Positions 6,401-44,096 of a stretch of 44,913 bases of DNA are shown here, one piece after another. Position 1 is the first letter of the stretch; each line of letters opens with the position of its first letter. Origin of the DNA: Klebsiella phage ST13-OXA48phi12.5. The notes under the pieces were generated by a model. That model was not told the origin of the DNA. It saw only the letters and a program-made list of their open reading frames with translations, and did no database searches. The DNA is taken from sequence record MK714353.1; one strand, 5' to 3'. A program made the position numbers and the translations under genes.

Positions 6401-6481
6401 CATGTGATTATTAAAGTGATTATTTTAAGAAAAAATTTTAGAAAGGTGTTTTTGCGAGGGTGGTTGCTAAGGTGTAGCGAT

Positions 6482-6501: not shown

Positions 6502-7191
6502 TTATGCGAATCGTTTGTATTCGATCGATTGTCTGAGAAGGACTCTGGCCATAACGTAAAACTGGTCTTCATCACCTGGCTCTACATACCATTTTTCATA
6601 GATGGGGTTATCCGAAATTACAGCTAGTCGGTCCCTTTGCATCTGCAAGCGCTTGACGTGAAGAGTTTTGCCAAAAACAAACACATAAACGCCATCACTG
6701 TCAAAATGGGTGACGCTGATGTCTACGAAAATTTCATCGCCGGGGGATATTGTCGTGTCCATGCTATCACCGGTAACGGTGATTACTTTTATGTGATGAG
6801 CTGGACGATTGCCAAATAGAGATCTGGCCTGCTCTGATGTGTATTCGATCGCACGAATCGTCTCGATGAAATCGTTCGTGATAAGTGCACCAGGACCTGC
6901 GCTGGCTTTTACATCGAGGACATCTACCCGATAAATGCCATTTTTCGGTGTTACTGGCGTCTGCACTTCCGTGATCTGTATGGAATCAGCAAGCATTTCA
7001 CCTGCTCCAGTGGAAAGCCATTCAGGACGCACGCCTAACACAGATGCTATTTCCACTGTTTTGCGAGAGCCGTTGGCGCCATTAAGCAGCTTGTTTACGC
7101 TTGACTGAGCCATGCCGACCTCTTTGGCAAGCCTGCCTTGCGTATACCCAGCCAATGACATTGCTCGAGCAAGACGCTCAGAGAAATCCAT
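6502..7191 (-). CDS. cI: CI-type prophage repressor (HTH_XRE N-domain + S24 LexA-like autopeptidase C-domain)
   Basis: N-terminal HTH (LAGYTQGRLAKEVGMAQSSVNKL). C-terminal GDSM Ser nucleophile and HVKRL Lys. Ala-Gly cleavage-site candidate in the linker. Strong AGGAGGTG Shine-Dalgarno. Divergent from cro. Confidence 0.88.
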   Translation of the reverse strand: MDFSERLARAMSLAGYTQGRLAKEVGMAQSSVNKLLNGANGSRKTVEIASVLGVRPEWLSTGAGEMLADSIQITEVQTPVTPKNGIYRVDVLDVKASAGPGALITNDFIETIRAIEYTSEQARSLFGNRPAHHIKVITVTGDSMDTTISPGDEIFVDISVTHFDSDGVYVFVFGKTLHVKRLQMQRDRLAVISDNPIYEKWYVEPGDEDQFYVMARVLLRQSIEYKRFA

Positions 7192-11975: not shown

Positions 11976-12592
11976 CCAGCAAATTAACCAGAGAGCAGCT
12001 TCACGAACGTGCTCGTGAAAACGTCAAAGCGCTGAAAATGGCATCACGACAGACAGCATTCGAAAGCGCGCGCGAAGAAATATTGGCGGACCTGCAGCTG
12101 GCTGAACTGGCGTTGGCCGCAATGGACAGCGAGCCGGTGGCAGAAGTGGTTTCAATTTATGGCGACCCCGAAGCCTTTGGGGAGCGAGAGATTAGACCGC
12201 TTGTCGGCATTCAGCAAATGCCATACGGGACGAAGCTCTATCGCCACGCGCAGCTAGCGCCTGCCTCTCCTGTTTGCACCTGCCCCAGCGGCGATGGTTC
12301 GCTGCGCTGGCCTTGTCCGGTGCATGCTGGCAGCTCTCCGGTAATTCCGGATGGTTACGTGATGGTGCCTATGAGGTTAACCGCTGAGAACGGCGCAAAG
12401 GGGGCGCTATCAGGTGAGTTTTCAGAAACCAAGTTCGTAAACTGCCCGGAATGCTTTGGTGATGATGAATGTGAAACCTGCGACGGAAGCGGGAGAATTG
12501 AAATAACAGTGCCTGTCACCTGGACGACTATCAAAGAAATCTGGTCTAAAGGCGTGGAGCATTTCGCAACCTCCCAGCAGGAGGTGAAGTGA
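11972..12592 (+). CDS. Hypothetical protein with C-terminal zinc-ribbon/DnaJ-type CxxCxGxG motif (206 aa)
   Basis: CPECFGDDECETCDGSGRI near the C-terminus. It is the last gene of the coupled O-P operon. Confidence 0.4.
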   Translation: MTSKLTREQLHERARENVKALKMASRQTAFESAREEILADLQLAELALAAMDSEPVAEVVSIYGDPEAFGEREIRPLVGIQQMPYGTKLYRHAQLAPASPVCTCPSGDGSLRWPCPVHAGSSPVIPDGYVMVPMRLTAENGAKGALSGEFSETKFVNCPECFGDDECETCDGSGRIEITVPVTWTTIKEIWSKGVEHFATSQQEVK

Positions 12593-12734
12593 TGGGTAAG
12601 CTAACTTTCGTCGTTGAGTTTGTAAATTATAAAGAAACCGCCGCGGCTGAGAATCATTAAATCTGAAGGTGGTAACAGCGATGTTGATGGTATAGCTTAT
12701 TGTGAAAATCAACCAATGAACAGGATCTTGAGAT

Positions 12735-13601
12735 ATGGATAAAGTGGCACATGAAAATAAAAATACGGATGAACAGGTTGAAGCACAAGATCAAAGACCT
12801 GTATGCGGAATTATAATGCCTATTGCAGATACCGATGGTTATCCAAAAGGGCATTGGCAGCATGTATATGCTATTCTGTCTGAGGCTGCGAATGCAGCTG
12901 GTTTTAAGCCTAACTTAGTCAGTTTTGATTCTGATGTGGGGGTAATTCAGAAACGTATAGTACAGAATATCTACTCAAATCCTATTGTCATTTGTGATAT
13001 TAGTAGTCGTAATCCAAATGTAATGTTAGAATTAGGTATGAGACTTGCATTTGATAAGCCAGTAATTATCGTAAAAGATATAAAAACAGATATTAGTTTC
13101 GATATCTCACCTATTGAGCATCTTAGGTATCCTGATGACCTAAGATACAAAATAATAAATGAGTTCAAGTCAACTTTGAGCTATAAATTGGTAGAAACGC
13201 ATAAAAAATCTATACGCAACCCCGATTACACTACTTTTTTAAAACATTACGGGACGTTTGAAATTGTAAAGATACAGCAAAAAGAAGTTTCTGAGGCTAG
13301 GTATATCCTTTCTGAGCTTGAAGAGATAAAGAAAATAATTCGTCAAAAAGACTATAAAAGTGAACCTCATAGTCGCTTATCATCTGTGATGGATTACGGT
13401 ACTTTTATATATCCTTTGAATGATGCTAATAGACACAAAATAGAAAACCTTACATGGCTTAAAACTTTAGAAAAAGACTCTGATTTTACTATAACATCTC
13501 TAGAGATAAAGGATGATACTTTGGTTTTAGTGGTCACTTCGAACCTCGATGAGGGACCTAAAAATTATGACATCATCCTTGGGGCTTTAAATGAAAAATA
13601 A
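12735..13601 (+). CDS. AT-rich moron: protein with N-terminal nucleoside 2-deoxyribosyltransferase-like (NDT/Rcl/TIR-related Rossmann) domain plus an unknown C-terminal domain (288 aa)
   Basis: Residues ~22-125 (VCGIIMPIAD ... NPIVICDISSRNPNVMLELGMRLAFDKPVIIV) match the NDT-family signature, cf L. leichmannii NDT DVGLGMELGYALSQGKYVLLV with its catalytic Glu. The gene is clearly lower in GC than its flanks and has its own terminator. Confidence 0.5.
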   Translation: MDKVAHENKNTDEQVEAQDQRPVCGIIMPIADTDGYPKGHWQHVYAILSEAANAAGFKPNLVSFDSDVGVIQKRIVQNIYSNPIVICDISSRNPNVMLELGMRLAFDKPVIIVKDIKTDISFDISPIEHLRYPDDLRYKIINEFKSTLSYKLVETHKKSIRNPDYTTFLKHYGTFEIVKIQQKEVSEARYILSELEEIKKIIRQKDYKSEPHSRLSSVMDYGTFIYPLNDANRHKIENLTWLKTLEKDSDFTITSLEIKDDTLVLVVTSNLDEGPKNYDIILGALNEK

Positions 13602-13722
13602 TACATTTTTAAAATAAAATGACTAGCATATTTTTACTCACCTGAGCCGGTTTTTGTTCCTTCTTTGTTGAGAGCTAATCAGGCTGAGATATGCCAGACA
13701 TGAGTCGCTGCTTAAGCTATAA

Positions 13723-13749
13723 TCCCCTCAACTCCAGAGGGGATTTTTT
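13723..13749 (+). terminator. Rho-independent terminator after the AT-rich moron
   Basis: TCCCCTC-AACTCCA-GAGGGGA hairpin followed by TTTTTT. Confidence 0.6.
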
Positions 13750-13932
13750 ATGTCAAATGAAGAAATGACTCCAGCCGAAAAATACAAAGCATCAAGGAAG
13801 CGGTATAAAAAACGATGGCTTGAGTCGGATATTGCCAACGCAAGGCGCTTTGGTGAGAAAGAGGTCGCTTCTGTTGACGGCTACAGGTCGCCCTATGACA
13901 CGCGGAAAAAAAGAGGGAGAACAGCAGATTGA
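13750..13932 (+). CDS. Hypothetical small basic protein (60 aa)
   Basis: ORF immediately after the terminator, with a GAGGGG Shine-Dalgarno. Lys/Arg-rich. Confidence 0.3.
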
Positions 13933-14192
13933 CACAATCAAAATGGAACATTGCAGCCAAATCGAAAGACGAGCAGGATAAGGTTAGCGTAGACCTCGCC
14001 GCGTCCGGCGTCGCCTACAAAGAGCGCCTGAACATGCCGGTAGTCGCCGAAGTGGTTGCCAGAGAGCAGCCTGAACACCTACGCGAGTATTTCATGGAGC
14101 GCGTCCGCTACTACCGCGAGCAGAGCATCCATCTACCCCGAGCATCCGATCCGCGCTATCTGGAAATGGCCGAGCAGAACGCCAAGAAATAG
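13929..14192 (+). CDS. Hypothetical protein (87 aa)
   Basis: ATGA-coupled to the upstream ORF. Confidence 0.35.
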
Positions 14193-16247: not shown

Positions 16248-16384
16248 GCCAGCTTACCATAGAGCGCATCCGTGACCGCTGGCAAAAGCTCCGACTTTGC
16301 CGGCACCGCGGCACCGTACTAGTTGACTACCGCATACTGAGAAACTTTGTCCGTATCTATCAGAGCCTGGGAGAGACAGCATGA
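16244..16384 (+). CDS. ninH: NinH-like small HTH protein (46 aa; below the ORF-track cutoff)
   Basis: ATGA-coupled to ninG and to the next gene. QKLRLCRHRGTVLVDY resembles lambda NinH RRLKCSRGTVRKYV. Confidence 0.4.
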   Translation: MSQLTIERIRDRWQKLRLCRHRGTVLVDYRILRNFVRIYQSLGETA

Positions 16385-17190
16385 ACCTCGAATCTATCGC
16401 CAAATACTTCGCACCTAAATCACCAATGCTGAGCGACTCGCCACGGGCTACTGCATCAGATGGTCTAACTGGCACTGATATCATGGCCGCTCTTGGGCTG
16501 GTAAATGCCAAGTGCGGATTTGGCTTTGACCTCTATCTGGCAAAGATCGGGGTAAGCACACCCGACAGAGCAATGGAGCTACTTTATGAATCAGCAGAGC
16601 GATTATCAAACCGCTTTAACATCGTTTCAGAACTCAGCCAGGACGTTCGCAAAAGAGTTCTCGAAGTTCTGTGTGCTTTTGCATACCAGGATTACACGCG
16701 AAGTGCTGCCAGCGTTAGAAAATGCACTTGCTGCGATGGGACTGGCTTCACAGAGGCCCAAGTGTTCACCAATAAATGCTCATATCCATGGGGCAAGCCA
16801 CCTTATTGGGCAAAGATGTCCCGAGCGGTTCGCCCAAGCCACTGGGAATGCTGGAGCGAAGTGCGCGAAGTGGTCAAAGTTAAATGCTCAGCCTGTAACG
16901 GAAAGGGTGCTATCAGCAATTCGTGTCGCTGCAATGGGAAAGGAAAGGTACTGGATAAAGAGACCAGCGAGCGCCTTGGGCTGCCGGTAATGAAGGTGTG
17001 CGATCGCTGCAGCGGAAGAGGCTATGCGCGCATGAAGTTTTCGACGGTGATGGAAGGGGTAAGGGCTGTGGCTGACATTAAGAAAACGGCAGCTTATGAG
17101 CAACTGAAACCTTTCTTCGAGGAGCTGGTATCCGAATGTCACAAACAGGAATCCTACGCTGATGTCATTCTCTCCCGGGTGACAAAATAA
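16381..17190 (+). CDS. Putative late-gene antiterminator Q (Q82-like?) with four DnaJ-type CxxCxGxG zinc-finger repeats
   Basis: Sits in the Q position: last nin-region gene, immediately upstream of a PR'/tR'-like element and the lysis cassette. Repeats CTCCDGTG, CSACNGKG, CRCNGKG and CDRCSGRG. Confidence 0.5.
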   Translation: MNLESIAKYFAPKSPMLSDSPRATASDGLTGTDIMAALGLVNAKCGFGFDLYLAKIGVSTPDRAMELLYESAERLSNRFNIVSELSQDVRKRVLEVLCAFAYQDYTRSAASVRKCTCCDGTGFTEAQVFTNKCSYPWGKPPYWAKMSRAVRPSHWECWSEVREVVKVKCSACNGKGAISNSCRCNGKGKVLDKETSERLGLPVMKVCDRCSGRGYARMKFSTVMEGVRAVADIKKTAAYEQLKPFFEELVSECHKQESYADVILSRVTK

Positions 17191-20806: not shown

Positions 20807-21274
20807 ATGGCTGCACTAAAACCGGAAGTTAAAGCCACCATCGTTCAAATGCTTGCGTGCTATGACACGCTGTCGATTGTGGTCGACGCCATCCAAAAAG
20901 ATTACGGGATAAAAGTCACCCCTCAGCAAGTTGAATCGCACGATCCGACGAAGGTCAGCGGCAAGGGTCTGGCTAAAAAGTGGGTAGACCTCTTCAACCA
21001 TACCCGCGACCGTTTTCTCAACGAAATTTCCGATATCCCGATCGCCAACAAGGCCTACCGTCTGCGCGTACTGCAGCGAATGTCGACGACTGCTGAGAAT
21101 ATGAAGAACATCGGTATGACGGCCCAACTACTGGAGCAGGCAGCAAAAGAGGTGGGTGAGGCTTACAGCAATAAGCAAAAAGTCGAACACACCAGTCCTG
21201 ACGGTAGCATGTCGCCGCGACCAACGACGATCAGACTGGTAGGAGTAGAGCCAACTAATGGAAAGTCAGGTTGA
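20807..21274 (+). CDS. Terminase small subunit (DUF2280-like HTH)
   Basis: Immediately precedes and overlaps the large terminase. The N-terminus KPEVKATIVQMLACYDTLSIVVDAIQKDYGIKVTPQQV resembles DUF2280-type TerS proteins. Confidence 0.55.
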   Translation: MAALKPEVKATIVQMLACYDTLSIVVDAIQKDYGIKVTPQQVESHDPTKVSGKGLAKKWVDLFNHTRDRFLNEISDIPIANKAYRLRVLQRMSTTAENMKNIGMTAQLLEQAAKEVGEAYSNKQKVEHTSPDGSMSPRPTTIRLVGVEPTNGKSG

Positions 21275-22577
21275 CCTACAAATCCCGGCGAAGCTTGTTC
21301 CCGTATTCGCGACAGAGGGCATTCGCTATCGTGGCGCGCATGGTGGTCGCGGTTCCGCAAAGACGCGCACATTCGCGCTGATGAGTGCGGTTAAAGCGTA
21401 TCAGGCAGCCGAAAGCGGATTAAGCGGCGTCATACTCTGCGCTCGCGAGTTTATGAACTCCCTCGAAGAGTCATCAATGGAGGAAGTAAAACAGGCGATC
21501 CGGTCCGTTCCCTGGCTGGATGATTACTTCGATATTGGCGAAAAATACATCCGCACCAAAAACCGCAACGTCAGCTACGTCTTCTGCGGCTTGCGCCACA
21601 ACCTAGACAGTATTAAGTCAAAGGCGCGCATTCTGGTTGCTTGGGTGGATGAGGCTGAGTCGGTATCGGCGACGGCCTGGAAGAAGTTGCGACCGACTGT
21701 ACGAGAAAATGGCTCTGAAATCTGGGTGACATGGAACCCGGAAAAAGACGGCAGCGCCACTGATAAGCTCTTCAGAAAGAACCCGCCGAAAAGCTCGATG
21801 ATTGTCGAAATGAACTACAGCGACAATCCATGGTTCCCGGATGTACTCGAAGAAGAGCGGCTCGAAGATCTGGAAAACCTCGACTACGCCGATTATGCGT
21901 GGATTTGGGAAGGCGCTTATCTGGAGAACTCTGATAAACAGGTGCTGGCGAATAAATACGTGGTGCAGAGCTTTGAAGATGACCTCTGGAAGAAATCAGA
22001 ACGCCTGCTATTTGGTGCTGACTTCGGCTTCGCAAAAGACCCGAGCACGCTTATTCGCATGTTCATTCTGGATAACAACCTCTACATCGAATACGAGGCC
22101 TACGGCAACGGGGTAGAGCTTGACGATATGTGGAAGTTCTATGCTGGCAAAACCGATGCCACACCGAAACAACTTGAAGACTGGAAGGTTACTGACGAGG
22201 CGAAATTCCCCGGCATACCCGAGGCTCGCAAATGGCCTATCAAAGCTGATAATTCCAGACCTGAAACTATCAGCCATATCAAGGGACAGGGATTCAATAT
22301 CTCAGCAGCTCAGAAATGGCAGGGCAGCGTTGAGGATGGCATTACCTGTCTACGTGGCTTTAAGAAAATCATCATTCATCCACGCTGCAAAGAGACAGCG
22401 AAAGAGGCTCGGCTTTACTCGTACAAAACGGACCGGATCACTGGCGAAGTCTTGCCAGTTATTGAGGACAAAAACAACCACTGTTGGGATGGTGTCCGGT
22501 ACGGTCTGGACGGGTATATCAAACGTAAACCTCAGTCGATGGGAATGATGATTCCAAAACGCCTTCAGGGCAGATAA
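21258..22577 (+). CDS. terL: Terminase large subunit
   Basis: N-terminal ATPase with Walker A GAHGGRGSAKT and Walker B-like VDEAE. 439 aa. C-terminal nuclease-fold acidic residues. Sits in the canonical position before the portal. Confidence 0.85.
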   Translation: MESQVDLQIPAKLVPVFATEGIRYRGAHGGRGSAKTRTFALMSAVKAYQAAESGLSGVILCAREFMNSLEESSMEEVKQAIRSVPWLDDYFDIGEKYIRTKNRNVSYVFCGLRHNLDSIKSKARILVAWVDEAESVSATAWKKLRPTVRENGSEIWVTWNPEKDGSATDKLFRKNPPKSSMIVEMNYSDNPWFPDVLEEERLEDLENLDYADYAWIWEGAYLENSDKQVLANKYVVQSFEDDLWKKSERLLFGADFGFAKDPSTLIRMFILDNNLYIEYEAYGNGVELDDMWKFYAGKTDATPKQLEDWKVTDEAKFPGIPEARKWPIKADNSRPETISHIKGQGFNISAAQKWQGSVEDGITCLRGFKKIIIHPRCKETAKEARLYSYKTDRITGEVLPVIEDKNNHCWDGVRYGLDGYIKRKPQSMGMMIPKRLQGR

Positions 22578-29801: not shown

Positions 29802-30566
29802 ATGCAAGGCTGTGCTAATGATACCGGCAAGCTGATTGGTAAGGTGGCCGTGCTACGCATGGCTATGGGCTGTGCTGATACCGTTCCGGCCCTTTCCGAA
29901 TGGAAACGCCTGGGCGCGCTAACCACCAAGGGCTTTGACTACTCCATGAATACCGTCACCTCTGAGGCTGACGATACGAAAGGTCTGGTTGAGAACCTGG
30001 TCAACAACATGGATTTCACCATTTCCGGTGAAGGGGAATTCCGTAAGCAGGATAAAACGACTGAAATCGGCGCCATTGCTATCTCGAAATATATTTTCGA
30101 TGAAGTTCAGGCCGGTCGCCAGCCGACGCTGTGGGTCCGCTTTGACTTTACTGGTGAAGACGCCGGCACCTACATCATGGGGTACTTCAACACCACCTCC
30201 TGGTCTGGTGATTTCGGCACCACGGATATTTCGACCTTCTCCGGGGAGTGGAAAGTCTACGACGCTGACACCGTGGTATTTGAAGTCGCTCCGCCGGCGC
30301 TGGCGTTCACCACTAACCTACCGACCACCAAGAGCGTGGTGGCCGGATCGGCTCTGAATATGTCGGTAGTAGTTGAGGGTGGAACTTCTCCTTACACCTA
30401 CGTCTGGAAGAAAGACGGAACGGTTGTCAGCGGGCAAACAACGGCGACCTTCAACAAGGCCAGCGCTGTTTCTGGTGATGCCGGGGTTTATACCTGTGAA
30501 GTCACCGATTCTTCCGCGACGCCGGTCAAGATCACCTCTGCGTCCTGCACGGTCACTATCAGTTAA
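29802..30566 (+). CDS. Major tail (tube) protein with C-terminal Ig-like (Big_2-type) domain
   Basis: Sits in the position before the chaperone and tape measure. The C-terminal ~90 aa (PTTKSVVAGSALNMSVVVEGGTSPYTYVWKKDGTVVSG ... YTCEVTD) looks like a bacterial Ig-like domain, as in lambda gpV. Confidence 0.65.
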   Translation: MQGCANDTGKLIGKVAVLRMAMGCADTVPALSEWKRLGALTTKGFDYSMNTVTSEADDTKGLVENLVNNMDFTISGEGEFRKQDKTTEIGAIAISKYIFDEVQAGRQPTLWVRFDFTGEDAGTYIMGYFNTTSWSGDFGTTDISTFSGEWKVYDADTVVFEVAPPALAFTTNLPTTKSVVAGSALNMSVVVEGGTSPYTYVWKKDGTVVSGQTTATFNKASAVSGDAGVYTCEVTDSSATPVKITSASCTVTIS

Positions 30567-30633: not shown

Positions 30634-31323
30634 ATGACCCCGATTAAAGAATTAGGCGAATGCGTTATCGGTAGCGGTGACCGGGAATTCTTTTTCCGGC
30701 CGTCGTTTCGCAACATGGCGCGAATCGGTGAGCCCGAGGAGATTGTTCAGGCGTTCTATGACCTGTGCAATGACGAGGCGACGCCATTCGCGCAGCGCGT
30801 AGCTGAGGCCTATATCCGCGATGAGTACAGCCGAATTCCTTATTGCGTCCTGCGGTTTATGCAAAGCGGGCTTCTGTCACGCAAAGCAATCATGGCCGCG
30901 CATACGGTACTGACAGCATGTTGTGACGATGATATCGGCGATCTGGTTGGATGGATGAAGCCGGGGAAATCACGCAAGCGTGGCTTCGTCTGGCGCCCGG
31001 GCAGCATGCCGCCGGAAAGCATGGTCATCGTCGCGCAAAACCTGATGATGCACGGCATCATCGGCAAGGCCAAGGTGCGCAAGCTGCAGCGTTACGAAAC
31101 GAACGAGACCACCGCAGAATTCCGCGCCGCCGACTACATCATGGCGGCCAGAAACCATTTCTGCATAAGCCGGGAAGAGGCTGAGAACCTCACGATGACA
31201 GAGTTCGCCATGATGATTAACGCCAAATACCCCAATCAGAACGGCTTCACGCGCGAAGAGTACGACACGGTCATGGACGAAGACGATCGCCGCTGGCAGG
31301 CGATGATGGAGCAGGAGAGATAG
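30634..31323 (+). CDS. Putative tail assembly chaperone
   Basis: 229-aa acidic protein between the major tail and (after a cargo island) the tape measure. No G/GT frameshift was identified. Confidence 0.35.
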   Translation: MTPIKELGECVIGSGDREFFFRPSFRNMARIGEPEEIVQAFYDLCNDEATPFAQRVAEAYIRDEYSRIPYCVLRFMQSGLLSRKAIMAAHTVLTACCDDDIGDLVGWMKPGKSRKRGFVWRPGSMPPESMVIVAQNLMMHGIIGKAKVRKLQRYETNETTAEFRAADYIMAARNHFCISREEAENLTMTEFAMMINAKYPNQNGFTREEYDTVMDEDDRRWQAMMEQER

Positions 31324-31625
31324 AGTACTTAAGGGTATTTTTATTGTCCGAATGATACTGTGAGTGATCGATGGCACACACCGCACAAATTGTGAGATCG
31401 ATTTAACCCCCTCTAAAACGAAGCCAGAAGCGCTACAAGAGGCGATAATTTGAGGCGTGCCCTGGTACACAGCATTTTTTCGCTGTTCTTGGCAATTTTT
31501 AGGGCCATTCTGGGTGAGATAGATTCAACCAAAGGTTGAAGGATTAACTTTAAGGTAATAAACTCGATGTCAAGTGATAGTTGTAGATGGTATGGGGTTG
31601 TGCTTGAGTAAGTTTTGGAGGAGTT

Positions 31626-32189
31626 ATGTTTAGCGAAGAAAAAGTAGCTCAAATGGCTGCTTACCTACTGTCGAAGGACGGTGGGCGCATGGCATACCTA
31701 AAGCTTATCAAACTGCTTTATCTTTCTGATCGTCAGTCTATGGGCGTTTATGGAGAATCTATAAGCGGAGATAGATTTGTCGCTATGAAGCACGGTCCTG
31801 TTCTCTCACAAACCTATGACCTTGTCAAAAATGGCGGGGAGGTAGAAAGCGGCTGGAATCACTGGATACGAGGCGCGGAGAATTATGAAGTTGCGCTTAA
31901 ACCAATGGCCGTTTCTGTTGAAGATTTAGATGAACTTAGCGAAGCTGATATCGAAATTCTCGATAGCATAATGGCTGAGTTTGGTCATATGTCAAAATAC
32001 CAGATTCGTGATTTTACTCATGACCATTGTGCGGAGTGGCAAGACCCCGGTTGCACTTCTGTGGCTATACCTCATTCAGCCACTTTTGCAGCGTTAGGCA
32101 AGCCCCCAGAAACGGCGTCAGCGCTTCAGGATCGCCTTTTCGAACGTGAGCAACTAGATCGGACATTGTCTGTATACAAATTTAGGTAG
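31626..32189 (+). CDS. Panacea-domain (DUF4065, GepA/SocA-like) antitoxin-type protein
   Basis: N-terminal AAYLLSKDGGRMAYLKLIKLLYLSDRQSMGVYGESISGDRFVAMKHGPVLSQTY matches the DUF4065 hallmark (...HLKLQKLLYYAQGWHLALYGEPLFDEEIEAWKYGPV...). AT-rich context. GGAGG Shine-Dalgarno. Confidence 0.7.
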   Translation: MFSEEKVAQMAAYLLSKDGGRMAYLKLIKLLYLSDRQSMGVYGESISGDRFVAMKHGPVLSQTYDLVKNGGEVESGWNHWIRGAENYEVALKPMAVSVEDLDELSEADIEILDSIMAEFGHMSKYQIRDFTHDHCAEWQDPGCTSVAIPHSATFAALGKPPETASALQDRLFEREQLDRTLSVYKFR

Positions 32190-32192
32190 CAG

Positions 32193-32600
32193 ATGAATAC
32201 ATTCATCCCTTTGGCAAAAGGTTCTATTTTAGTTCCATCTGGAAGGGATAAGCATTTGCATATCATTTGCAATGATCCAGTGCCTTACCCCAAGTATGCT
32301 AATGCAGAATCAGTTCTTTTGGTTAATATAACAACGCTCTATCCAGACCTACCATATGATGCGTCTTGTATTTTAGACGTTGGTGATCATCCATTCATAA
32401 AACACCAAAGCTTTGTTTATTATGGAAAGGCTGATATTTTTGCTGCTACCAGCTTAATGGCAGGAGTCCAGTCAGGAGAGCTCAAGATACGTCAAGCCTG
32501 CCCTGACCCTACGTTTACTCGAATTCTGTCTGGTTTTGAGGTTTCCAAAAGAGTTCCTGGTAAAGTAAAAAATTACTATCAAAAGTATATAGTTAAATAA
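32193..32600 (+). CDS. Unknown 135-aa protein tightly coupled (3-nt gap) to the Panacea-domain gene; candidate toxin partner
   Basis: Immediately downstream in the same operon, with no recognisable family, no TM segment, and a bidirectional terminator directly after it. Confidence 0.4.
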   Translation: MNTFIPLAKGSILVPSGRDKHLHIICNDPVPYPKYANAESVLLVNITTLYPDLPYDASCILDVGDHPFIKHQSFVYYGKADIFAATSLMAGVQSGELKIRQACPDPTFTRILSGFEVSKRVPGKVKNYYQKYIVK

Positions 32601-32625
32601 CCCGCCAACTGGCGGGTTATTCTTT
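32597..32625. terminator. Bidirectional intrinsic terminator between convergent genes
   Basis: AACCCGCC-AACT-GGCGGGTT hairpin flanked by T-runs on both strands. Confidence 0.5.
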
Positions 32626-32636
32626 CTGGTCCCTGC

Positions 32637-33110
32637 TCACTTCCCAAGTAGCGCTGAAAATCCTGCAGTCGTCACGGCTTGTACCACGGTTTTAATGGCT
32701 TCCGTCGACATTTCGCTGAGAGTCGACTTGGCTTTTTCCTTCTGTTCGTCGTTCATGTTTGAAATGGCGATCAGGTCTTCGAGGACAATCACCGCATCCC
32801 GATGAAACTTAATGGTTTGTACGTTCAGAATTGCGCCCAAACCGCCGTCATCGCGAATGAAATCTATGCCTTTGCTGGTGATTTTCGTGAAAGAGTCCAT
32901 TACAGATGGCAGTCGTCGACCTATTTCATTGCTAAGTCTTATCTCAATGAGTCCGTGACCAGCAAGATAAAGTAAGTTGGCAGTAAAGATATTAATGCCT
33001 CCAAATTTTTCTGAAAACTCCTTTGAGAAGCTACTGTCGGCAGATTCTGGGTAAATGTCGCAGAGGCGTTGGAGTAGCTCTCGCTGGATGGTGCGGTCAA
33101 ACTTTTCCAT
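32637..33110 (-). CDS. Hypothetical cytoplasmic protein (157 aa) in cargo island
   Basis: Convergent with the PanA-like operon and divergent from the next gene. AT-rich. No motif recognised. Confidence 0.4.
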   Translation of the reverse strand: MEKFDRTIQRELLQRLCDIYPESADSSFSKEFSEKFGGINIFTANLLYLAGHGLIEIRLSNEIGRRLPSVMDSFTKITSKGIDFIRDDGGLGAILNVQTIKFHRDAVIVLEDLIAISNMNDEQKEKAKSTLSEMSTEAIKTVVQAVTTAGFSALLGK

Positions 33111-33250
33111 GATGATTCCTTGGTTGATGCCTGCTTCAAGATTACCTTGCTATCGTACCGCTGAACATCCTGATAAGCGAACAGGTTGCTTTGTCGTATC
33201 GCTTCCCCTCTGCTACGATTGCCGCATCATTTACTGATGGGGATAGGGAT

Positions 33251-33589
33251 ATGAGGAAGTTTCTGTTAGTGGCTTCGCTTTCGTTGGCATTCAGCACAGC
33301 GGCGTCAACAAGCTATACAAAAGAACAGCTTAATTCAATGGCCGCATCAGGACAGTATCCTGAGCAAGAGTCTCCCGTAACTAAAAGTGTGCAGGTGGTT
33401 GATTTTGATCACTGCAAACAAGATGCGTATAACATTTTTAGCCAGATTAGTGATAGTTATCCGGCCAATGTAATAGTAGATACGAATGTTCTTTACATAG
33501 TTAAATTCTGGACCAACGATGGAACAGTTATGATCTCCTGTTCTGAACCGGATGGAAAGAAGGTTGTAACGTCGTCTGCTTACAAATAA
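33251..33589 (+). CDS. Hypothetical secreted protein (112 aa, signal peptide MRKFLLVASLSLAFSTAAS)
   Basis: Start chosen at the Met at 33251, which gives a canonical Sec signal peptide. Two Cys in the mature part. Confidence 0.4.
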   Translation: MRKFLLVASLSLAFSTAASTSYTKEQLNSMAASGQYPEQESPVTKSVQVVDFDHCKQDAYNIFSQISDSYPANVIVDTNVLYIVKFWTNDGTVMISCSEPDGKKVVTSSAYK

Positions 33590-33629
33590 AGGCCATTAAA
33601 ATGATGAATGAGAAGTCTATTCATAAAGA

Positions 33630-34115
33630 GTGCGGGGTAGCGATGTGAGGCGGTTAATCATTATCGGGCTACTTTTCTTGTCACACTTTTGTTATGCAAA
33701 ATCTGATACTCAGCTCATTAATGATGCAAAAGAGGCAGTAAGAAAAGAGTTATCTCAGAAGTATAAGCCGGGAGACTGCGAAAGATGGCGATTACTTGAA
33801 GCTAGCGGTAAAGCCAGAAGTGGCTCTGCTGTCATTATTTGTGACAGTAATTTCAACCCATTGTTAGGACTGGATTTCTCAGAGATAAAGGTTTTCAGGA
33901 ATGAAAACTCAAACGCTGTCTGTGGTATTGTCTCTGGACATACCGATATAAGTAAAATTGGAGGTCGGTTCGTTTATACAGATGGTGATGCAGGGCATGT
34001 TTTCATTAAGAAATCAAAAGAGCCTGCTTTCTTATCTGATAAGAGCGAAATCGGTCGCAATGCACTGAAGATACTGGATCAGCAATTAAAAATTGAGTCC
34101 AGAAGCTGCGGCTAA
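33630..34115 (+). CDS. Hypothetical secreted protein (about 156-161 aa, signal peptide RRLIIIGLLFLSHFCYA)
   Basis: GTG start at 33630 or 33645. The N-terminal hydrophobic h-region is followed by AKS. Four Cys. Confidence 0.4.
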   Translation: MRGSDVRRLIIIGLLFLSHFCYAKSDTQLINDAKEAVRKELSQKYKPGDCERWRLLEASGKARSGSAVIICDSNFNPLLGLDFSEIKVFRNENSNAVCGIVSGHTDISKIGGRFVYTDGDAGHVFIKKSKEPAFLSDKSEIGRNALKILDQQLKIESRSCG

Positions 34116-34167
34116 TGCAGAGTACGTAATTGGTAACTAATTACGAAACTTTCGTAGACAACACAAA

Positions 34168-34189
34168 CCTCGCTCCGGCGGGGTTTTTT
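34168..34189 (+). terminator. Rho-independent terminator at the end of the cargo island
   Basis: CCTCGC-TCCG-GCGGGG hairpin followed by TTTTTT, immediately upstream of the tape-measure start. Confidence 0.55.
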
Positions 34190-34205
34190 ATTGCCTGGAG
34201 GATAC

Positions 34206-36875
34206 ATGGCGGAAGGTGAAAATCTTGGCGGAGTCTACATTGAGATTGAGGCCGATGTTGCAAAATTGCTTACTGGTCAGCAGCAGGCGAATAAAGCCCT
34301 AGATAACATTGGCGATAATGCACAAAAAACATCAGGGCAATTCAAAAAGCTTGATACGCAACTTAACGCTACCTCGAAAGTGATGTCTTCAGGGTTAAGA
34401 GGGAGCGTTCAGCAGGCAGGTTATCAGATCCAGGACTTCATCGTTCAGGTCCAAGGTGGTCAATCTGCATTGGTAGCATTTAGTCAGCAAGGGTCGCAGC
34501 TGGCTGGAGCATTCGGGCCGGGTGGTGCTATCGTCGGGGCGCTAATCGCGCTTGGAACTGTTGTTGCAGGGACTTTAATTTCTTCTCTCAATGGTGGCAA
34601 AAGTGCAATGGATGCGCTTAAAGATGCCGCCGAGAGGATGAACGACGTTATCTCAGTTTCCTCTCAGGGGATCGCTGCACTTTCTGACAAATACGCAAAC
34701 CTTGCCAGGGTTAATGTCACGGCAGCAACACTGCTGAGAAATCAGGCTCTGATTGAATATAACCAAGCCATCTCGAAAATACCTAAAGCGATAGGAGAGG
34801 CGGCTGACTCTGTTCTTTCGTTTGGAGATAAGGCCATATCAGCGTTAGCTGGCGGTTATGCTTCCGTTGAAGGGTTTAATGATCGCCTAAATTCGCTAAA
34901 TATAACGACTAGCGATTACTCTTCTGCAATGAAACAGGCATATGGCGCAGGAATGAATTTCCGAGCAACGGCTGACTCTATCGGTAATACAGTAGGTGCC
35001 GTAGCCTCTAAGTTGGGTATTTCTGAAGAGGCGGCGTTTGGGCTTACTAAGCAGCTCGCAGATCTTAGTGACAACCCGTCTCCGCAGGCACTGCAAACAC
35101 TAGTTTTGAGAATTAATGAAATCATCAACTCCTCAAAAAATGCAAAGCCAGAGTTGATTGAGCTATACAATAAACTCACAGATTTGTCTACCAGCGCATC
35201 AAATGCCGCCGTTAATTTTGAGATACTGAAAAAATCAACAGATAACCTGACATCTGGGCAAAAAAGTTTAATTCAACAGTCCGAAAGGAATCTGGCGTTA
35301 TCTAAATTGCAAGGTGCAGCAAGGGCAAAATTAGCGGCTCAATATGCAGCTGAGGACGCGGGATTCTCGAAAGACGATCCGCACACCAAGCGAATGATGG
35401 ATGATGCTGCCGCGACTTACACCAATCTCGATTCGCATAAGAAGCTGACAGCGGAGCAGAAGAAAGGTGAGAGTCAGGCAGAGAGAAATGCAAAAGTTGT
35501 CGAAGAGTACAGCCAGAAAGCAAAATTGGCTGCCGATTCTACAAGCGAACTCTCGCGCGAACAGGCGATACTGGCAGCAAAACAGAAGTTAACGAATGCT
35601 ACACCGCAGCAGGTTGCTCAAGTTGAACGTGATGCAGCGGCGGCATGGGATACGGCCAATGCTCTCAAAGCCCAAGCCGCCGCTCAAAAGCTCCTCCCTG
35701 AAACAAGAGAGAACGCCTCTTATCAGCAGGATATGAAGGATCTGAAAACTGCTCTTGATGGGAAGAGGATTACCCAGCAACAGTACGATCAAACCAGTGA
35801 GCAACTGGAGGCCCAGCATCAGGCCAACCTTGCCAAAATACGCTCGCAGCAGGTGGTTAACCCCACCCAGCAGGCACTTGCAGAAGTTGACCCGGTGCAG
35901 CAATTGGCCAACCAGCACGCGCAGGAGCTGGCGCTGATTCAGCAGTTCGAGCAGCAAGGGGTTCTCGCCCATGAGAATGCATTAGCGCTGAAAAATGCCG
36001 CTGACCGGCAATATGAGCAGCAGCGGATCGCAGCTCAATGGGAAATCCTCAGCCAGCAGAGCCTAGGTTATAACATGCTGACGAGTGCGTTGGACGCCTT
36101 CAGCGGGAATGCCTCTAACGCAATTACTGGACTGCTTACTGGCACAATGTCAGCACAGGAGGCGATGCAGTCACTCGGCAATACCATCCTGAACAGCGTG
36201 ATCAACAGCATTGTCCAGGTGGGTGTGGAGATGCTGAAGAACTTCATCTTATCTCAGACGCTGGGGGCTGCTGCTCAGGCTGCAAATGCTGCGTCTGCTA
36301 CTGCAGGGGGGGCTGCGGCCCTCGCAGCTTGGACGCCGGCAGCAATTGCCGCCTCAATTGCTACTGGGGGAACAGCTTCAGCAACAGGCTTAACCGCGTA
36401 TCAGGGGGCGCAAGCCGCCGGATTGGCAACAAGTGTGCTCGGTGGCCGCAAAAATGGGGGCCCTGTAACAGCCGGCGGAGTGTACCCTGTAGGCGAAGGG
36501 AACCTCCCGGAGTTCATGCAGACCAGCAAAGGTCTATTCATGATCCCTGGTGATGATGGTCGAGTTTTCAGTAACAAGGATGTGACAAGCGGGTCACCGC
36601 GTATCAAGAAAGCCTCGACGGGTAGTGAATACCAAAGCCAGAGCAGCCGCGACAGTGGTTCAACAGGATCGCAGTCGTCGAAATCTATATCGGTAAACGT
36701 TCAGTTCTATGATCAGACTTCCGGCGGACAGCATTCATTCCAGGCGCAGGCCAGCCAGGAAGGTAGCGTCGTGACAGTAGAGGGTTTTCTTACCGATGTT
36801 GATCGCAATGGACCAATGTCCTCTGCAATTCAAAGCGCTTTTGGTCTCGGAAGAAAAGCGCAAGGTGCTTACTGA
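34206..36875 (+). CDS. Tail tape measure protein
   Basis: About 890 aa, Ala/Gln/Leu-rich helical protein with a Gly-rich C-terminal region. Position and size are canonical. ATG at 34206 with a GGAGG Shine-Dalgarno; the track TTG start at 34191 is upstream. Confidence 0.85.
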   Translation: MAEGENLGGVYIEIEADVAKLLTGQQQANKALDNIGDNAQKTSGQFKKLDTQLNATSKVMSSGLRGSVQQAGYQIQDFIVQVQGGQSALVAFSQQGSQLAGAFGPGGAIVGALIALGTVVAGTLISSLNGGKSAMDALKDAAERMNDVISVSSQGIAALSDKYANLARVNVTAATLLRNQALIEYNQAISKIPKAIGEAADSVLSFGDKAISALAGGYASVEGFNDRLNSLNITTSDYSSAMKQAYGAGMNFRATADSIGNTVGAVASKLGISEEAAFGLTKQLADLSDNPSPQALQTLVLRINEIINSSKNAKPELIELYNKLTDLSTSASNAAVNFEILKKSTDNLTSGQKSLIQQSERNLALSKLQGAARAKLAAQYAAEDAGFSKDDPHTKRMMDDAAATYTNLDSHKKLTAEQKKGESQAERNAKVVEEYSQKAKLAADSTSELSREQAILAAKQKLTNATPQQVAQVERDAAAAWDTANALKAQAAAQKLLPETRENASYQQDMKDLKTALDGKRITQQQYDQTSEQLEAQHQANLAKIRSQQVVNPTQQALAEVDPVQQLANQHAQELALIQQFEQQGVLAHENALALKNAADRQYEQQRIAAQWEILSQQSLGYNMLTSALDAFSGNASNAITGLLTGTMSAQEAMQSLGNTILNSVINSIVQVGVEMLKNFILSQTLGAAAQAANAASATAGGAAALAAWTPAAIAASIATGGTASATGLTAYQGAQAAGLATSVLGGRKNGGPVTAGGVYPVGEGNLPEFMQTSKGLFMIPGDDGRVFSNKDVTSGSPRIKKASTGSEYQSQSSRDSGSTGSQSSKSISVNVQFYDQTSGGQHSFQAQASQEGSVVTVEGFLTDVDRNGPMSSAIQSAFGLGRKAQGAY

Positions 36876-37071: not shown

Positions 37072-37341
37072 CTATGCTGGAATGACGGTAATTGAATGGC
37101 GTACGGACGCCGATCCACCTCCTATATCAAGGGTGACATTCCAGTACCCCGAGTGTGGTACATGCAAGTGTGCAGGCAGTTTCTCAAAGAAACCTCCGCC
37201 ACCGTGATGCTGGAACCCCCTCCGGCTGCGGTAGTTGTTAAAATTTGAATCAGTCATCAGTAAAACGTTGCACTGATGAGAGCAGTCAACAACAACCGTA
37301 TCACCGGCGTTGAGATGCATTCGTGTATGCAAGAAATTCAT
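37072..37341 (-). CDS. Hypothetical 89-aa protein encoded antisense to the tail operon (moron candidate)
   Basis: Minus-strand ORF in a 590-bp gap between the tape-measure and minor-tail genes. No competing plus-strand ORF. The GDTVVVDCSHQCNVLLMTDSNF block feels like a conserved DUF, but I cannot name it. Confidence 0.35.
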   Translation of the reverse strand: MNFLHTRMHLNAGDTVVVDCSHQCNVLLMTDSNFNNYRSRRGFQHHGGGGFFEKLPAHLHVPHSGYWNVTLDIGGGSASVRHSITVIPA

Positions 37342-41355: not shown

Positions 41356-43320
41356 ATGGCAGAAGTACCGTTACCAACTCCCACCGACAACCAGGTACCA
41401 AGTACTGATATTCGGGACGCAGTTTATGCTGGCGCCATGCTGGATAAGGTTGTCACCAGTACAGAGCTGAAATACACCGATCGCCTGGGCGGTGAGCACT
41501 ACACCGTAGATGGTATCAAAGCGGAAGGGGATAAAGTCGTTGAAGAAACGCGGCAGAACCTGATCCCTCTCAGCCGGCAGTATATGACACTCGCGGCAGC
41601 GCAGGCAGACATTGCTAATATACCAGTCAATTCAGCTATATATGTTCGTAATGCTGATGGCACATCTTTGGCGGATGAATACATTAACAACTCCGGTATA
41701 TTGACTGCGACTGGTCGAAAAATGCCATCACAGCAAATGTTGGATGCCGTATCGGAAACTGCAAATGATTCGAGTGATTTTCTGGCCACCGCTCAGACCG
41801 GGTTATATTTTGGTAATAATGAAACAATACCTTTCGTTATAGACAGTAGTAATAAACTAATACTCGGCTATGACTCTCATAAAGACGAGGTTATTGGGGC
41901 TGGTATGATCACCAGCGAAAAGGCAAAATCAATCAGCGATAGTGCAATTGATGAGCGAGAGGCAAATGGAAACACTGGTTTGTATGTTGGTTCAGGCACT
42001 ATCATTCCTTTAATGATTGATGGCAACAATAGACTAATACTCGGCTATGATGCAGAAAAAGACTCTGTTGTTGGCGCGGGATTGAACCAGTCCACAATTA
42101 CCCCAGAGAGGAAACCGCTTCCATTAGAATTAAGACCAATAGCAAAGGCTGTTAACCATACATTAGGGTATGGTCAATCACTTTCTATTGGAGCCACTGC
42201 AACAACAATTATTTCTAGTTCGCAGCCGTATTCAAATATTACTTTTTCAACCGGTCCTCGGGCAGCAAATAACGATGTTTCATCGCAAAAACCTCTTGTG
42301 GAAGATAATACCAGCCCTGCACCTGATGGCGGCACTAATCGCGGAGAAACATTCTGCTCGGGAATGGCTAACTACGCCCTAACGCTAGCAGCCATTGATA
42401 ATGGAATCATTCCATCTACACACGTTATTTTTGCCAGCACCGCAGGTAAGGGGGGGACTAAACTTGCAAACCTGATTAAAGGTACAGCCTGGTATAATGA
42501 TCACTTCCTGCTGCATGTGACTGGTCAGTATGCCTTGAACCATGACTCTGCGGTGCATATCATTCCGATTGCTCAGGGGGAGACCGATCTTGACCAGTCA
42601 CCCCCTACGACTGCTGCCGTATGGCGGGCCATGGCTGAGCAATTCCAGGTAGACGCCGAGTCAGATATTAAGGCTGTGAATGGGCAGACAAGTCCTGTTT
42701 TTGTTCAGTTTAGCCAGTGCTCTTACAAGGCTGCGCTCAGCCCAAATATCTGCCTGTCTCAGCTCGATTTGGTTCAAAAAAATAAAAAATTCAGGCTTGC
42801 AACTCCGCAGTACCATCTTCCGCGAGCATCAGATGGTACACACCTTACTAACGTTGGTTATAAATGGGATGGGGCTTACAGAGGGCGAGATTATAAAGAG
42901 TTGATGTTTGACGGAATCGAGTCGCAATATATCAATCCTGTTTCAGCCACACTTCGCGGAAAAACATTGACCTTAAAGTTTGATCGCATAAGGGTTCTTC
43001 CATTGAGGCTAGATAAAGAAAATCTGGCAGCAACAACAGATTATGGATTTCGTGTTAACGACTCAAATGGAAAGGTTAATATAACATCATCACGAAGTGT
43101 AGATGATACTGTTGTTATGGAGTTGGTAACAATACCAGTTGGGAATACCGTTGTCAGGTATGCCCTTGACTATCTTGGTGAAGGGTTGAACATCATTAAT
43201 GGTGCATCAGGTAACCTTCGGGACAGTGATACTTCTTTTATTACTATCAATAATGTTAATTACCCTATGTTTCAGATAGCTCCTCACTTCGAACTACCAG
43301 TTATTAAGGTTGGTGAATAA
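41356..43320 (+). CDS. Tail fibre / receptor-binding protein with internal tandem repeats and a C-terminal SGNH/SASA-like carbohydrate esterase domain
   Basis: Two ~59-aa repeats (TGLYFGNNETIPFVIDSSNKLILGYDSHKDEVIGAGM and TGLYVGSGTIIPLMIDGNNRLILGYDAEKDSVVGAGL). GYGQSLSIG is a GQSN-type nucleophile block, and DGTHL is a DxxH block. The 3' half is AT-rich. Confidence 0.6.
   Translation: MAEVPLPTPTDNQVPSTDIRDAVYAGAMLDKVVTSTELKYTDRLGGEHYTVDGIKAEGDKVVEETRQNLIPLSRQYMTLAAAQADIANIPVNSAIYVRNADGTSLADEYINNSGILTATGRKMPSQQMLDAVSETANDSSDFLATAQTGLYFGNNETIPFVIDSSNKLILGYDSHKDEVIGAGMITSEKAKSISDSAIDEREANGNTGLYVGSGTIIPLMIDGNNRLILGYDAEKDSVVGAGLNQSTITPERKPLPLELRPIAKAVNHTLGYGQSLSIGATATTIISSSQPYSNITFSTGPRAANNDVSSQKPLVEDNTSPAPDGGTNRGETFCSGMANYALTLAAIDNGIIPSTHVIFASTAGKGGTKLANLIKGTAWYNDHFLLHVTGQYALNHDSAVHIIPIAQGETDLDQSPPTTAAVWRAMAEQFQVDAESDIKAVNGQTSPVFVQFSQCSYKAALSPNICLSQLDLVQKNKKFRLATPQYHLPRASDGTHLTNVGYKWDGAYRGRDYKELMFDGIESQYINPVSATLRGKTLTLKFDRIRVLPLRLDKENLAATTDYGFRVNDSNGKVNITSSRSVDDTVVMELVTIPVGNTVVRYALDYLGEGLNIINGASGNLRDSDTSFITINNVNYPMFQIAPHFELPVIKVGE
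41797..42085 (+). repeat. Two tandem ~176-nt repeat units inside the tail fibre gene
   Basis: ACTAATACTCGGCTATGA occurs at 41857-41874 and again at 42033-42050. Both copies encode ...N(K/R)LILGYD... Confidence 0.6.
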
Positions 43321-44096
43321 TGTCTAGTTTTGTATTGCGGATAAATGCATTTAGTAGTGATACATCTATGCCAATTATTAATGAATCTGACTTATCATTT
43401 AATCAATTGCCACCTGTTGAAAGTGATGCGTGGGAGTTTTTTGCTCTGGATGGCACTGACTCATCATTGATAGGAACTTTAAATAATCGCGCCTTAACCA
43501 AGCAAAACACAGTTACATCAGGTGATAATTTCTTTACTCTTGCTATTGGGAGCAATGTTAAAAATGCTCTTGTTAGCACATTTGCGGATAGCCGCATACA
43601 AACCCAGGCATTAGTCATCCGTTTTCCTTCGCTGCCGACCAACTCCTTACAAATTCCATTCATTGCTGGCGCCATGAATAACAGCGCGGGTTCAGGACTG
43701 TATCTTGATCCAGGCTCTTCATTATCATTGCGGCGGCAGTTCAGGCCATCAATAACTGCATCAGAGCAACCGTATGCATCCCTGGCTAACAAATGGATAT
43801 TTGTGGCATTGTCAGAGAATGGTGATGGCTCTCATATGGATAGCACTCTGTTCTGCTCAAACGGAACAACTTCGCCATACTCGGTAGAGCGTACAGATGC
43901 TATTGCGAAAGTTCTGGCATCAACTGGTATCGGTGTTGGCCATGTAAACTATGTCACGCCAGCAGAACGGCCAACAATTAACATGGATGTGGCAGAGTAT
44001 GCCATTTTTGATACGGCGAAATCTCCCTCTGATCTCATTCAGATGTATAACCGCGCAAAGAGACGGATGGCAGACAGGGGGATAACATTGTCATAA
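43320..44096 (+). CDS. Hypothetical tail-fibre-associated protein (258 aa; second receptor-binding protein or chaperone candidate)
   Basis: TAATG-coupled to the fibre gene. AT-rich. No motif recognised. Confidence 0.35.
   Translation: MSSFVLRINAFSSDTSMPIINESDLSFNQLPPVESDAWEFFALDGTDSSLIGTLNNRALTKQNTVTSGDNFFTLAIGSNVKNALVSTFADSRIQTQALVIRFPSLPTNSLQIPFIAGAMNNSAGSGLYLDPGSSLSLRRQFRPSITASEQPYASLANKWIFVALSENGDGSHMDSTLFCSNGTTSPYSVERTDAIAKVLASTGIGVGHVNYVTPAERPTINMDVAEYAIFDTAKSPSDLIQMYNRAKRRMADRGITLS

Follow-up and report, generated by a model that had tools for sequence, protein, structure and literature searches.

Klebsiella phage ST13-OXA48phi12.5 (sequence record MK714353.1), whose 44,913 nucleotides (nt) we refer to as the window, is essentially one lambdoid, Klebsiella-type siphovirus prophage. 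Inside its tail module, five open reading frames (ORFs) lie between the gene for a DUF6246 protein and the gene for the tape-measure protein. The first two of these, panA and panT, form a predicted toxin-antitoxin (TA) pair of the PanAT class and are the main subject of this work. The pair opens a block (31324-34190) with a guanine-plus-cytosine (GC) content of 0.430, compared to 0.518 in the whole window and 0.552 in the 5 kb upstream. Only 0.1% of windows of 2867 bp are as low in GC, the minimum is located at 31301, and the block constitutes the lowest-GC stretch of 2.87 kb. The original prediction, made from the letters of the DNA, had described such a low-GC block with five ORFs between tail genes; the block is real and all five ORFs are present at the coordinates first given.

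Gene 1, panA (31626-32189, plus strand), encodes a protein of 187 amino acids (aa), which we annotate as a standalone Panacea antitoxin lacking an N-terminal domain. It matches PF13274 (SocA_Panacea) with 95.3 bits (E 5.8e-27; gathering cut-off 25.7); the match spans residues 27-139 and the full model (1-113), bearing out the earlier reading of gene 1 as a Panacea/DUF4065 protein. The GPV signature of Panacea corresponds to G57-P58-V59. The protein also matches phrog_1281, an identical protein is named ‘Panacea domain-containing protein’ by NCBI, and its N-terminus, MFSEEKVAQ, resembles the MIFSEQKVAQ (corrected) of the experimentally validated PanA from P. moraviensis. The score against the SocA equivalog model NF047745 was 27.9 bits, below the cut-off of 190.

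Gene 2, panT (32193-32600, plus strand; 135 aa), starts 3 nt past the stop codon of panA, with an AGGT motif 6 nt upstream of its ATG. It matched no Pfam family at E-values up to 0.1 and no model in NCBIfam or PADLOC, and a homologue search returned 33 clusters, every one of which is annotated as ‘hypothetical protein’. This protein family is large: an exhaustive profile search yielded 3,671 representative clusters at 50% identity, 2,318 of them at E-values up to 1e-10, and the identical PanT protein occurs in 57 contigs. A Panacea gene is located immediately upstream and on the same strand in all 23 genome loci with a gene-2 homologue, which span Gammaproteobacteria, a Sutterella, Planctomycetota, and a metagenome-assembled genome of Dehalococcoidia, while the genes around the panA-panT pair vary from context to context. 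Gene 2 is thus the partner of gene 1, as had been proposed.

The same gene had also been put forward as a candidate new PanT-type toxin that matched nothing recognised. Its classification as a PanT held up; its novelty did not. Kurata et al. (2022, PNAS; PMC8832971) defined 88 PanT clusters, of which cluster T6 comprises 57 rows in their Dataset S1. Among the T6 pairs listed there with the antitoxin gene first are those of Salinivibrio socompensis S35 (spacing of 1 nt), “Yersiniaceae bacterium 2016Iso4” (-1 nt), and Pantoea septica LMG 5345 (-4 nt). The homologues that we recovered from these three genomes (Salinivibrio S35, 2016-Iso4, and P. septica LMG 5345; our loci L007, L012, and L014) are 52%, 49%, and 44% identical to gene 2, respectively, and their panA-panT junctions read TAAcATG (1 nt), TAATG (-1), and ATGA (-4), all of which match Dataset S1. 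By this sequence comparison, gene 2 is assigned to PanT cluster T6. The cluster also includes the pair of P. moraviensis (toxin WP_083201923.1, antitoxin WP_083354365.1), which was validated as a TA system with a toxic PanT that is neutralised and bound by PanA (PMC8832971). This PanT specifically inhibits protein synthesis, and HHpred related it to the EndoA/PemK/MazF RNases (PMC8832971). Far from matching nothing, gene 2 therefore falls into a known class that has one validated member.

At the level of fold, PanT is a MazF/CcdB-type SH3-like barrel, to which two C-terminal helices are added relative to the MazF/Kid/CcdB toxins. An alignment of gene-2 homologues (alignment A1; the window PanT serves as reference row) revealed conserved H21, D28, P29, N45, D56, C59, G64, H66, P67, F68, S73, Y77, G114, and S118, the polar ones among which are H21, D28, N45, D56, C59, and H66. 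Similar to the T6 pair of P. moraviensis, the Klebsiella locus places a standalone Panacea gene first, followed within a few nt by the gene for a toxin of about 130 aa, which has a MazF/PemK-like fold but no CDD or Pfam domain. In contrast to that pair, the Klebsiella copy sits in the tail-module slot of a prophage and belongs to a defined mobile cassette that brings a leader and a terminator of its own, and it is known here from sequence alone, whereas the P. moraviensis pair is validated. The antitoxin-first bicistronic layout is shared with MazEF, Kid-Kis (PemIK), and CcdAB, and so is translation inhibition, which has been reported for the T6 representative rather than for this copy; unlike in those systems, however, the antitoxin is a Panacea domain and not MazE, Kis, or CcdA. 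The type VI TA system SocAB of Caulobacter has the same Panacea/DUF4065 domain in its antitoxin, but the partner of PanA is a MazF-fold protein and not SocB. SocA acts as a ClpXP adaptor and not by direct inhibition.

The pair is preceded by a non-coding leader (31324-31625, plus strand) with a conserved core at about 31405-31625, a GGAGG 5 nt before the ATG of panA, and a hairpin, TCAACCaaaGGTTGA, at 31525-31539. The leader core is kept in a Raoultella copy of the cassette (locus L004, ~85%) and, at near 100%, in primase-bearing elements described below. Conservation of the leader was not found upstream of panA in 22 distant T6 loci or in two phages, and we rejected a family-wide cis element on the grounds that conservation does not extend beyond the close cassettes. 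A structured-RNA leader was likewise rejected, given that an Rfam search of 31200-34300 produced only sub-threshold matches on terminator hairpins. The repeated TGTGAG(T)GATCGAT motifs that had been noted in the leader are weakly supported: other cassette copies show no conservation of the leader segment with copies 1 and 2, which also led us to discard the repeat as an operator, and a loosened pattern matched only two copies, a result equalled by 5 of 100 shuffled sequences.

Downstream of panT, an intrinsic terminator (32596-32631, plus strand) consists of an 11-bp stem with six GC pairs and a T-rich tail; it lies between panT and a convergent gene of 157 aa, and a matching hairpin is retained in the Raoultella copy. 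A second terminator, a G+C-rich hairpin followed by a T-run (34165-34192, plus strand), is located directly upstream of the tape-measure gene and is 97-100% identical to annotated ‘terminator’ features in phages ES18, mEp390, and HK225. The same hairpin also follows panT in the Raoultella myophage, at about 6450-6480. A short terminator module thus seems to travel between unrelated phages. Both terminators had been predicted, the first as bidirectional; hairpins with T-runs are indeed found at both sites (32596-32621 and 34165-34186), but the one after panT passes the terminator scan on the plus strand only, and its action in both directions is plausible.

Comparison with other loci delimits a mobile cassette. 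By BLASTN, eight loci on primase-bearing elements share with the window exactly the 1.78 kb at 31350-33125, a span that runs from the leader through panA, panT, and the terminator to the convergent 157-aa gene, at 94-95% nucleotide identity, and their flanks are unrelated. An exact-protein look-up found the identical PanT in two backbones, namely the present prophage lineage (L029, L030) and these elements (L027, L028, and L031-L036), where a DUF927 or P4-alpha-type primase gene precedes the pair and genes for AntA, Ash, and AlpA are close by. Past the cassette, these elements further encode baseplate-hub-like, terS-like, and tape-measure/transglycosylase-like proteins. The evidence on their nature is mixed: the primase, Ash, AntA, and AlpA genes are set against the baseplate-hub-like, terS-like, and tape-measure-like ORFs, and they may be P4-like satellites, phage-inducible chromosomal islands (PICIs), or prophages. 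The Raoultella locus L004 shares only 31338-32628, from leader to terminator and without the 157-aa gene, at 88% identity, and here the cassette is located inside the baseplate module of a myophage, between the genes for a gp41-like hub and Baseplate_J. The panAT cassette is therefore mobile among at least three kinds of mobile-element backbones in Klebsiella and Raoultella. More distant T6 pairs adjoin the integrase gene in E. coli phage Lys8385Vzw and in Yersinia phages YeP1-3.

The convergent 157-aa gene (gene 3; 32637-33110, minus strand) is predicted to encode a winged helix (residues 1-90) and a helical C-terminal half, and its product appears distantly YjcQ/DUF2513-like. Its position in the cassette raises the idea of a three-component system, in which the winged-helix protein would regulate panAT or act as its sensor, for example by binding the leader hairpin at 31525-31539. 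In keeping with this, the gene accompanies panAT in the 1.78-kb cassette of all eight primase-element loci, PanA has no DNA-binding domain while the 157-aa protein carries a predicted winged helix, and a relative with a divergent panAT pair (L056; 45% and 39% identity) again has a homologue of the 157-aa gene, 59% identical, after the pair. However, no such homologue was found near the pair in 23 diverse T6 loci, where homologues of genes 4 and 5 were not found either, and the Raoultella cassette lacks the gene yet keeps the leader hairpin. In addition, the 157-aa gene occurs without panAT in nine of the 12 relatives that carry it in the same slot, as well as in unrelated phages, and five of the primase-element copies have a frameshift that affects its C-terminus. 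We therefore regard a three-component arrangement as quite unlikely; the 157-aa gene is probably an independent moron and possibly encodes a regulator.

The position of the cassette in the prophage becomes clearer when relatives are compared. Its left neighbour is the DUF6246 gene (30634-31323, plus strand; 229 aa; PF19759, E 1.4e-81; phrog_791, function unknown), for which we infer a tail-assembly-chaperone role from position alone; in the ORF map, no frameshift extension of the lambda G/GT type was seen for this gene. To the right lies the tape-measure gene (34206-36875, plus strand; 889 aa from the ATG at 34206; phrog_1538, E 1.2e-174), as called in the identical contig L030. We collected 80 IMG/VR loci with a DUF6246 protein of 91-98% identity, the window, and four other relatives, and the interval between the two flanking genes could be measured in 71 genomes. 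The slot was never empty: it ranged from 1,150 to 4,594 bp (median of 2,557 bp) and contained 73 protein families. The original prediction had assumed that the tail genes are normally contiguous, but the tail-tube, DUF6246, and tape-measure genes are contiguous in none of the 71 relatives. Using Pfam assignments as family names, we found KilA-N in 28 of the 71 slots, gene 5 in 21, a BamE-like lipoprotein in 15, XhlA-like proteins and gene 4 in 14 each, the 157-aa gene in 12, a Bro-N/P22_AR_C antirepressor in 11, a reverse-oriented Arc in ten, Rha in nine, and an HNH endonuclease in eight. PanAT is present in three: the window, L029, and, as a divergent allele, L056.

Several relatives show other arrangements of the slot. 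L068 and L070 have the architecture of the window, with KilA-N and a 58-aa ORF replacing panAT, and in Salmonella phage SPN3UB and Erwinia phage Midgardsormr38, Arc and antirepressor genes occupy the same position, followed by a homologue of gene 4 immediately upstream of the tape-measure gene. The divergent PanAT allele, with identities of about 45% and 39-40%, lies in the same slot of L056 (3873-4903) and of L059, and, with the 157-aa homologue that follows it in L056, this arrangement reflects either an independent acquisition or an old divergence of the same arrangement. The slot is thus a hypervariable, immI-like accessory region and not an interrupted junction.

Gene 4 (33251-33589, plus strand; 112 aa; phrog_21923) encodes a protein with a putative Sec-type signal peptide, MRKFLLVASLSLAFSTAAS, and gene 5 (33645-34115, plus strand; ~156 aa; phrog_14435) one with a signal-peptide-like N-terminus. 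The more likely start codons are ATG 33251 for gene 4, GTG 33645 for gene 5, and ATG 34206 for the tape-measure gene. Inspection of the N-termini agreed with the earlier view that both proteins are Sec-secreted, family and phage-protein searches provided no informative homology for either, and a function in superinfection exclusion or envelope modification would be no more than a reasonable guess, with lysogenic conversion, as first suggested, a further candidate role. Gene 5 is 98.8% identical in Klebsiella phage ST101-KPC2phi6.1, to which the segment 33599-36271, that is gene 5 and the 5’ two-thirds of the tape-measure gene, is 96% identical as one recombination block. In the 21 of 71 relatives that carry it, gene 5 was found only together with tape-measure alleles of 856-894 aa and never with those of 1092-1146 aa; the gene and this tape-measure allele are physically linked. 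Position 33255 marks where the window and L029, its relative of 99.95% identity, diverge. Consequently, the five genes do not form the single island that had been envisaged: the block is composed, as a mosaic, of three or more modules that assort independently, and the two secreted-protein genes assort separately.

The same census bears on the possibility that the five genes are conserved components of the tail module, for example assembly factors, rather than cargo. The genes do sit inside the tail operon, and genes 4 and 5 or analogous small ORFs are often found directly upstream of the tape-measure gene. However, panAT, gene 3, gene 4, and gene 5 occupy only 3, 12, 14, and 21 of the 71 slots, respectively, with 73 alternative families in the slot, and the signal peptides of genes 4 and 5 are at odds with tail assembly in the cytoplasm. 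For panAT and gene 3, the slot census refutes a tail-module role, and for the five genes as a set such a role is scarcely credible. The earlier proposal of accessory cargo is the one that stands, with close relatives carrying other genes in the same slot.

Accessory regions within late or tail operons are familiar from the immI region of P22 and from late-operon morons. As in these regions, the slot of the relatives holds Arc, antirepressor (Bro-N/P22_AR_C), Rha, and KilA-N genes, and slot genes are bracketed by their own terminators and are partly reverse-oriented. Unlike P22 immI, the window carries a TA cassette in the antirepressor/KilA-N position, and no Arc or Ant gene is left in the slot. 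Variable cargo at a fixed position between conserved genes is also typical of P2/P4 hotspots and of PICI-encoded immunity, and, as in the defence hotspots of prophages and satellites, the same cassette is common to a phage and to primase-bearing elements. In contrast to these hotspots, the cargo of the slot consists mostly of regulatory genes of the antirepressor type and of small secreted proteins. We do not call the slot a defence hotspot: PADLOC, run on 72 representatives, gave only helix-turn-helix-type (RmrA, capH), homing-endonuclease, and candidate-system matches.

Together, these data lead to a model for the PanAT pair. By analogy with the validated T6 member, PanT would inhibit translation, most likely as an endoribonuclease, and PanA would bind PanT directly and neutralise it, as suggested by the T6 member and by work on standalone Panacea antitoxins, which neutralise their toxins directly and for which the Panacea domain has been proposed to serve as a sensor (Ernits et al., 2023; PMC10440598). 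In the lysogen, the pair would be transcribed from its own leader, and the gap of 3 nt suggests that panA and panT could be translationally coupled. The hairpin terminators would insulate panAT, whereas late transcription modified by Q would read through both. In lambda biology, Q antitermination lets late transcription pass intrinsic terminators. Because the prophage encodes a Q-type antiterminator (PF03589 by Pfam; 16381-17190), late transcription of the tail genes could cross the two intrinsic terminators in the same manner. More speculatively, PanA might be lost or sequestered on superinfection or upon loss of the element, which would free PanT and could result in abortive infection, inter-element competition, or retention of the prophage. 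We consider the identity of the pair as T6 PanAT, together with its TA mechanism, likely.

Several observations weigh against this model, and they concern each of its layers. The placement in T6 next to the validated WP_083201923.1 is indirect, made via three genomes of Dataset S1. PanT has no sequence-level similarity to MazF: it does not match the Pfam family PemK_toxin (PF02452), a PDB profile search with the gene-2 family found no MazF and returned as its sole match a decarboxylase at chance level (E 0.79), and hhalign assigned a probability of 0.4% to a small, four-sequence profile of MazF, Kid, EndoA, and ChpBK. With no sequence-profile signal, the link to MazF is thus one of fold only. 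Moreover, the conserved H21, D28, N45, D56, C59, and H66 differ from the catalytic Arg/Thr pair of MazF, so that RNase chemistry is at present only presumed for PanT, and a CcdB-type fold is compatible with targets other than RNA cleavage. The leader, which had been described as promoter-like, yielded no promoter at threshold in a sigma-70 scan; the only candidate is a weak one recognised by eye, with a -35 element (TTGAAG) at 31536, a 17-nt spacer, and a -10 element (TAAACT) ending at 31564, and it overlaps the hairpin at 31525-31539. PADLOC-DB 2.0 contained no matching defence model for genes 1-4 and for gene 5 produced only a chance-level match (E 0.033) to the candidate system PDC-M24B. 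In the literature, we found no published phage-defence phenotype for PanAT T6 and no report from Klebsiella. Finally, Kurata et al. tested 25 PanTs, of which eight showed no toxicity in E. coli, and rescue by PanA failed in some cases (PMC8832971).

The last point invites the question of whether the pair is inert or repurposed, with a PanT that is non-toxic in Klebsiella and a Panacea protein engaged in another phage function, as an older annotation as ‘GepA/phage-associated protein’ might suggest; the eight non-toxic proteins include that of a phage-encoded pair, from vB_SemP_Emek (PMC8832971). On the other hand, the window PanT keeps all invariant and near-invariant residues of its family, the identical protein is preserved in as many as 57 contigs, the family comprises 3,671 representative clusters and shows strict synteny, and the sole T6 member tested is a genuine TA system (PMC8832971). 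An inert or repurposed pair therefore appears very unlikely to us.

What a functional TA pair does for the prophage is harder to judge. Phage defence or inter-element competition is our tentative suggestion for its biological role. A stronger version holds that T6 PanAT is a dedicated weapon against phages or competing elements, in which Panacea senses a component of an invading phage and frees a MazF-fold toxin whose His/Asp/Cys active site differs from that of canonical MazF, and that the cassette shuttles as a unit, sometimes together with the winged-helix gene, among a siphophage tail slot, a myophage baseplate module, and primase-bearing elements; this version is doubtful. Alternatively, PanAT could mainly serve as an addiction or stabilisation module, which would kill or arrest cells after loss of the prophage or satellite-like element and exclude no phages. 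Such behaviour is classic for type II TA systems on mobile elements (discussed in PMC8832971), the cassette rides on at least three element backbones, and the lack of a PADLOC model match points in the same direction. Against this stand the location of the cassette in accessory slots that typically house prophage genes expressed in the lysogen and acting on other phages, the growing number of TA systems shown to provide defence (PMC10440598), and the small benefit that post-segregational killing offers to a prophage integrated as a single copy. None of these arguments is decisive, and a primary role in addiction seems somewhat unlikely.

The remainder of the window is organised as expected for a lambdoid prophage, with a tyrosine integrase (PF00589 by Pfam; 61-1224, minus strand), a CI-like repressor of the S24/HTH type (6502-7191, minus strand; domain match), a large terminase (21258-22577), and, ahead of DUF6246, a major tail protein with an Ig domain (29802-30566). 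Other regions may also hold accessory genes. The early region contains a second, strongly AT-rich patch (12500-14000; GC of 0.31-0.42), in which an ORF of 288 aa without Pfam match (12735-13601, plus strand) is probably another such gene. Between the tape-measure and minor-tail genes, a reverse-oriented gene for an 89-aa DUF1883 protein (37072-37341, minus strand), also present in relatives L029 and L030, resembles a moron inserted into the tail operon. The distal tail region (41356-44096) is low in GC as well (0.37-0.48), and its ORFs of 654 aa and 258 aa, neither of which has a Pfam match, are presumably receptor-binding or depolymerase genes.

The find is real and largely ordinary: a published and validated PanAT class, carried in a well-delimited mobile cassette. 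The partner gene once called uncharacterised is a member of an experimentally validated PanT class and not the founder of a new toxin family. Its interest lies mainly in the sharp borders of the cassette and in the annotation gap around a very large toxin family, given that T6 PanT has no model in Pfam, NCBIfam, or PADLOC and is therefore annotated everywhere as ‘hypothetical protein’. The slot itself offers a convenient place to mine lysogen-expressed genes in this common Klebsiella prophage lineage. With its exact borders, native leader, and terminator, the cassette provides a clean construct for testing phage defence by PanAT, and, should T6 PanAT indeed act as a dedicated weapon, it would be a tractable natural system in which to examine the model of Panacea as a sensor.

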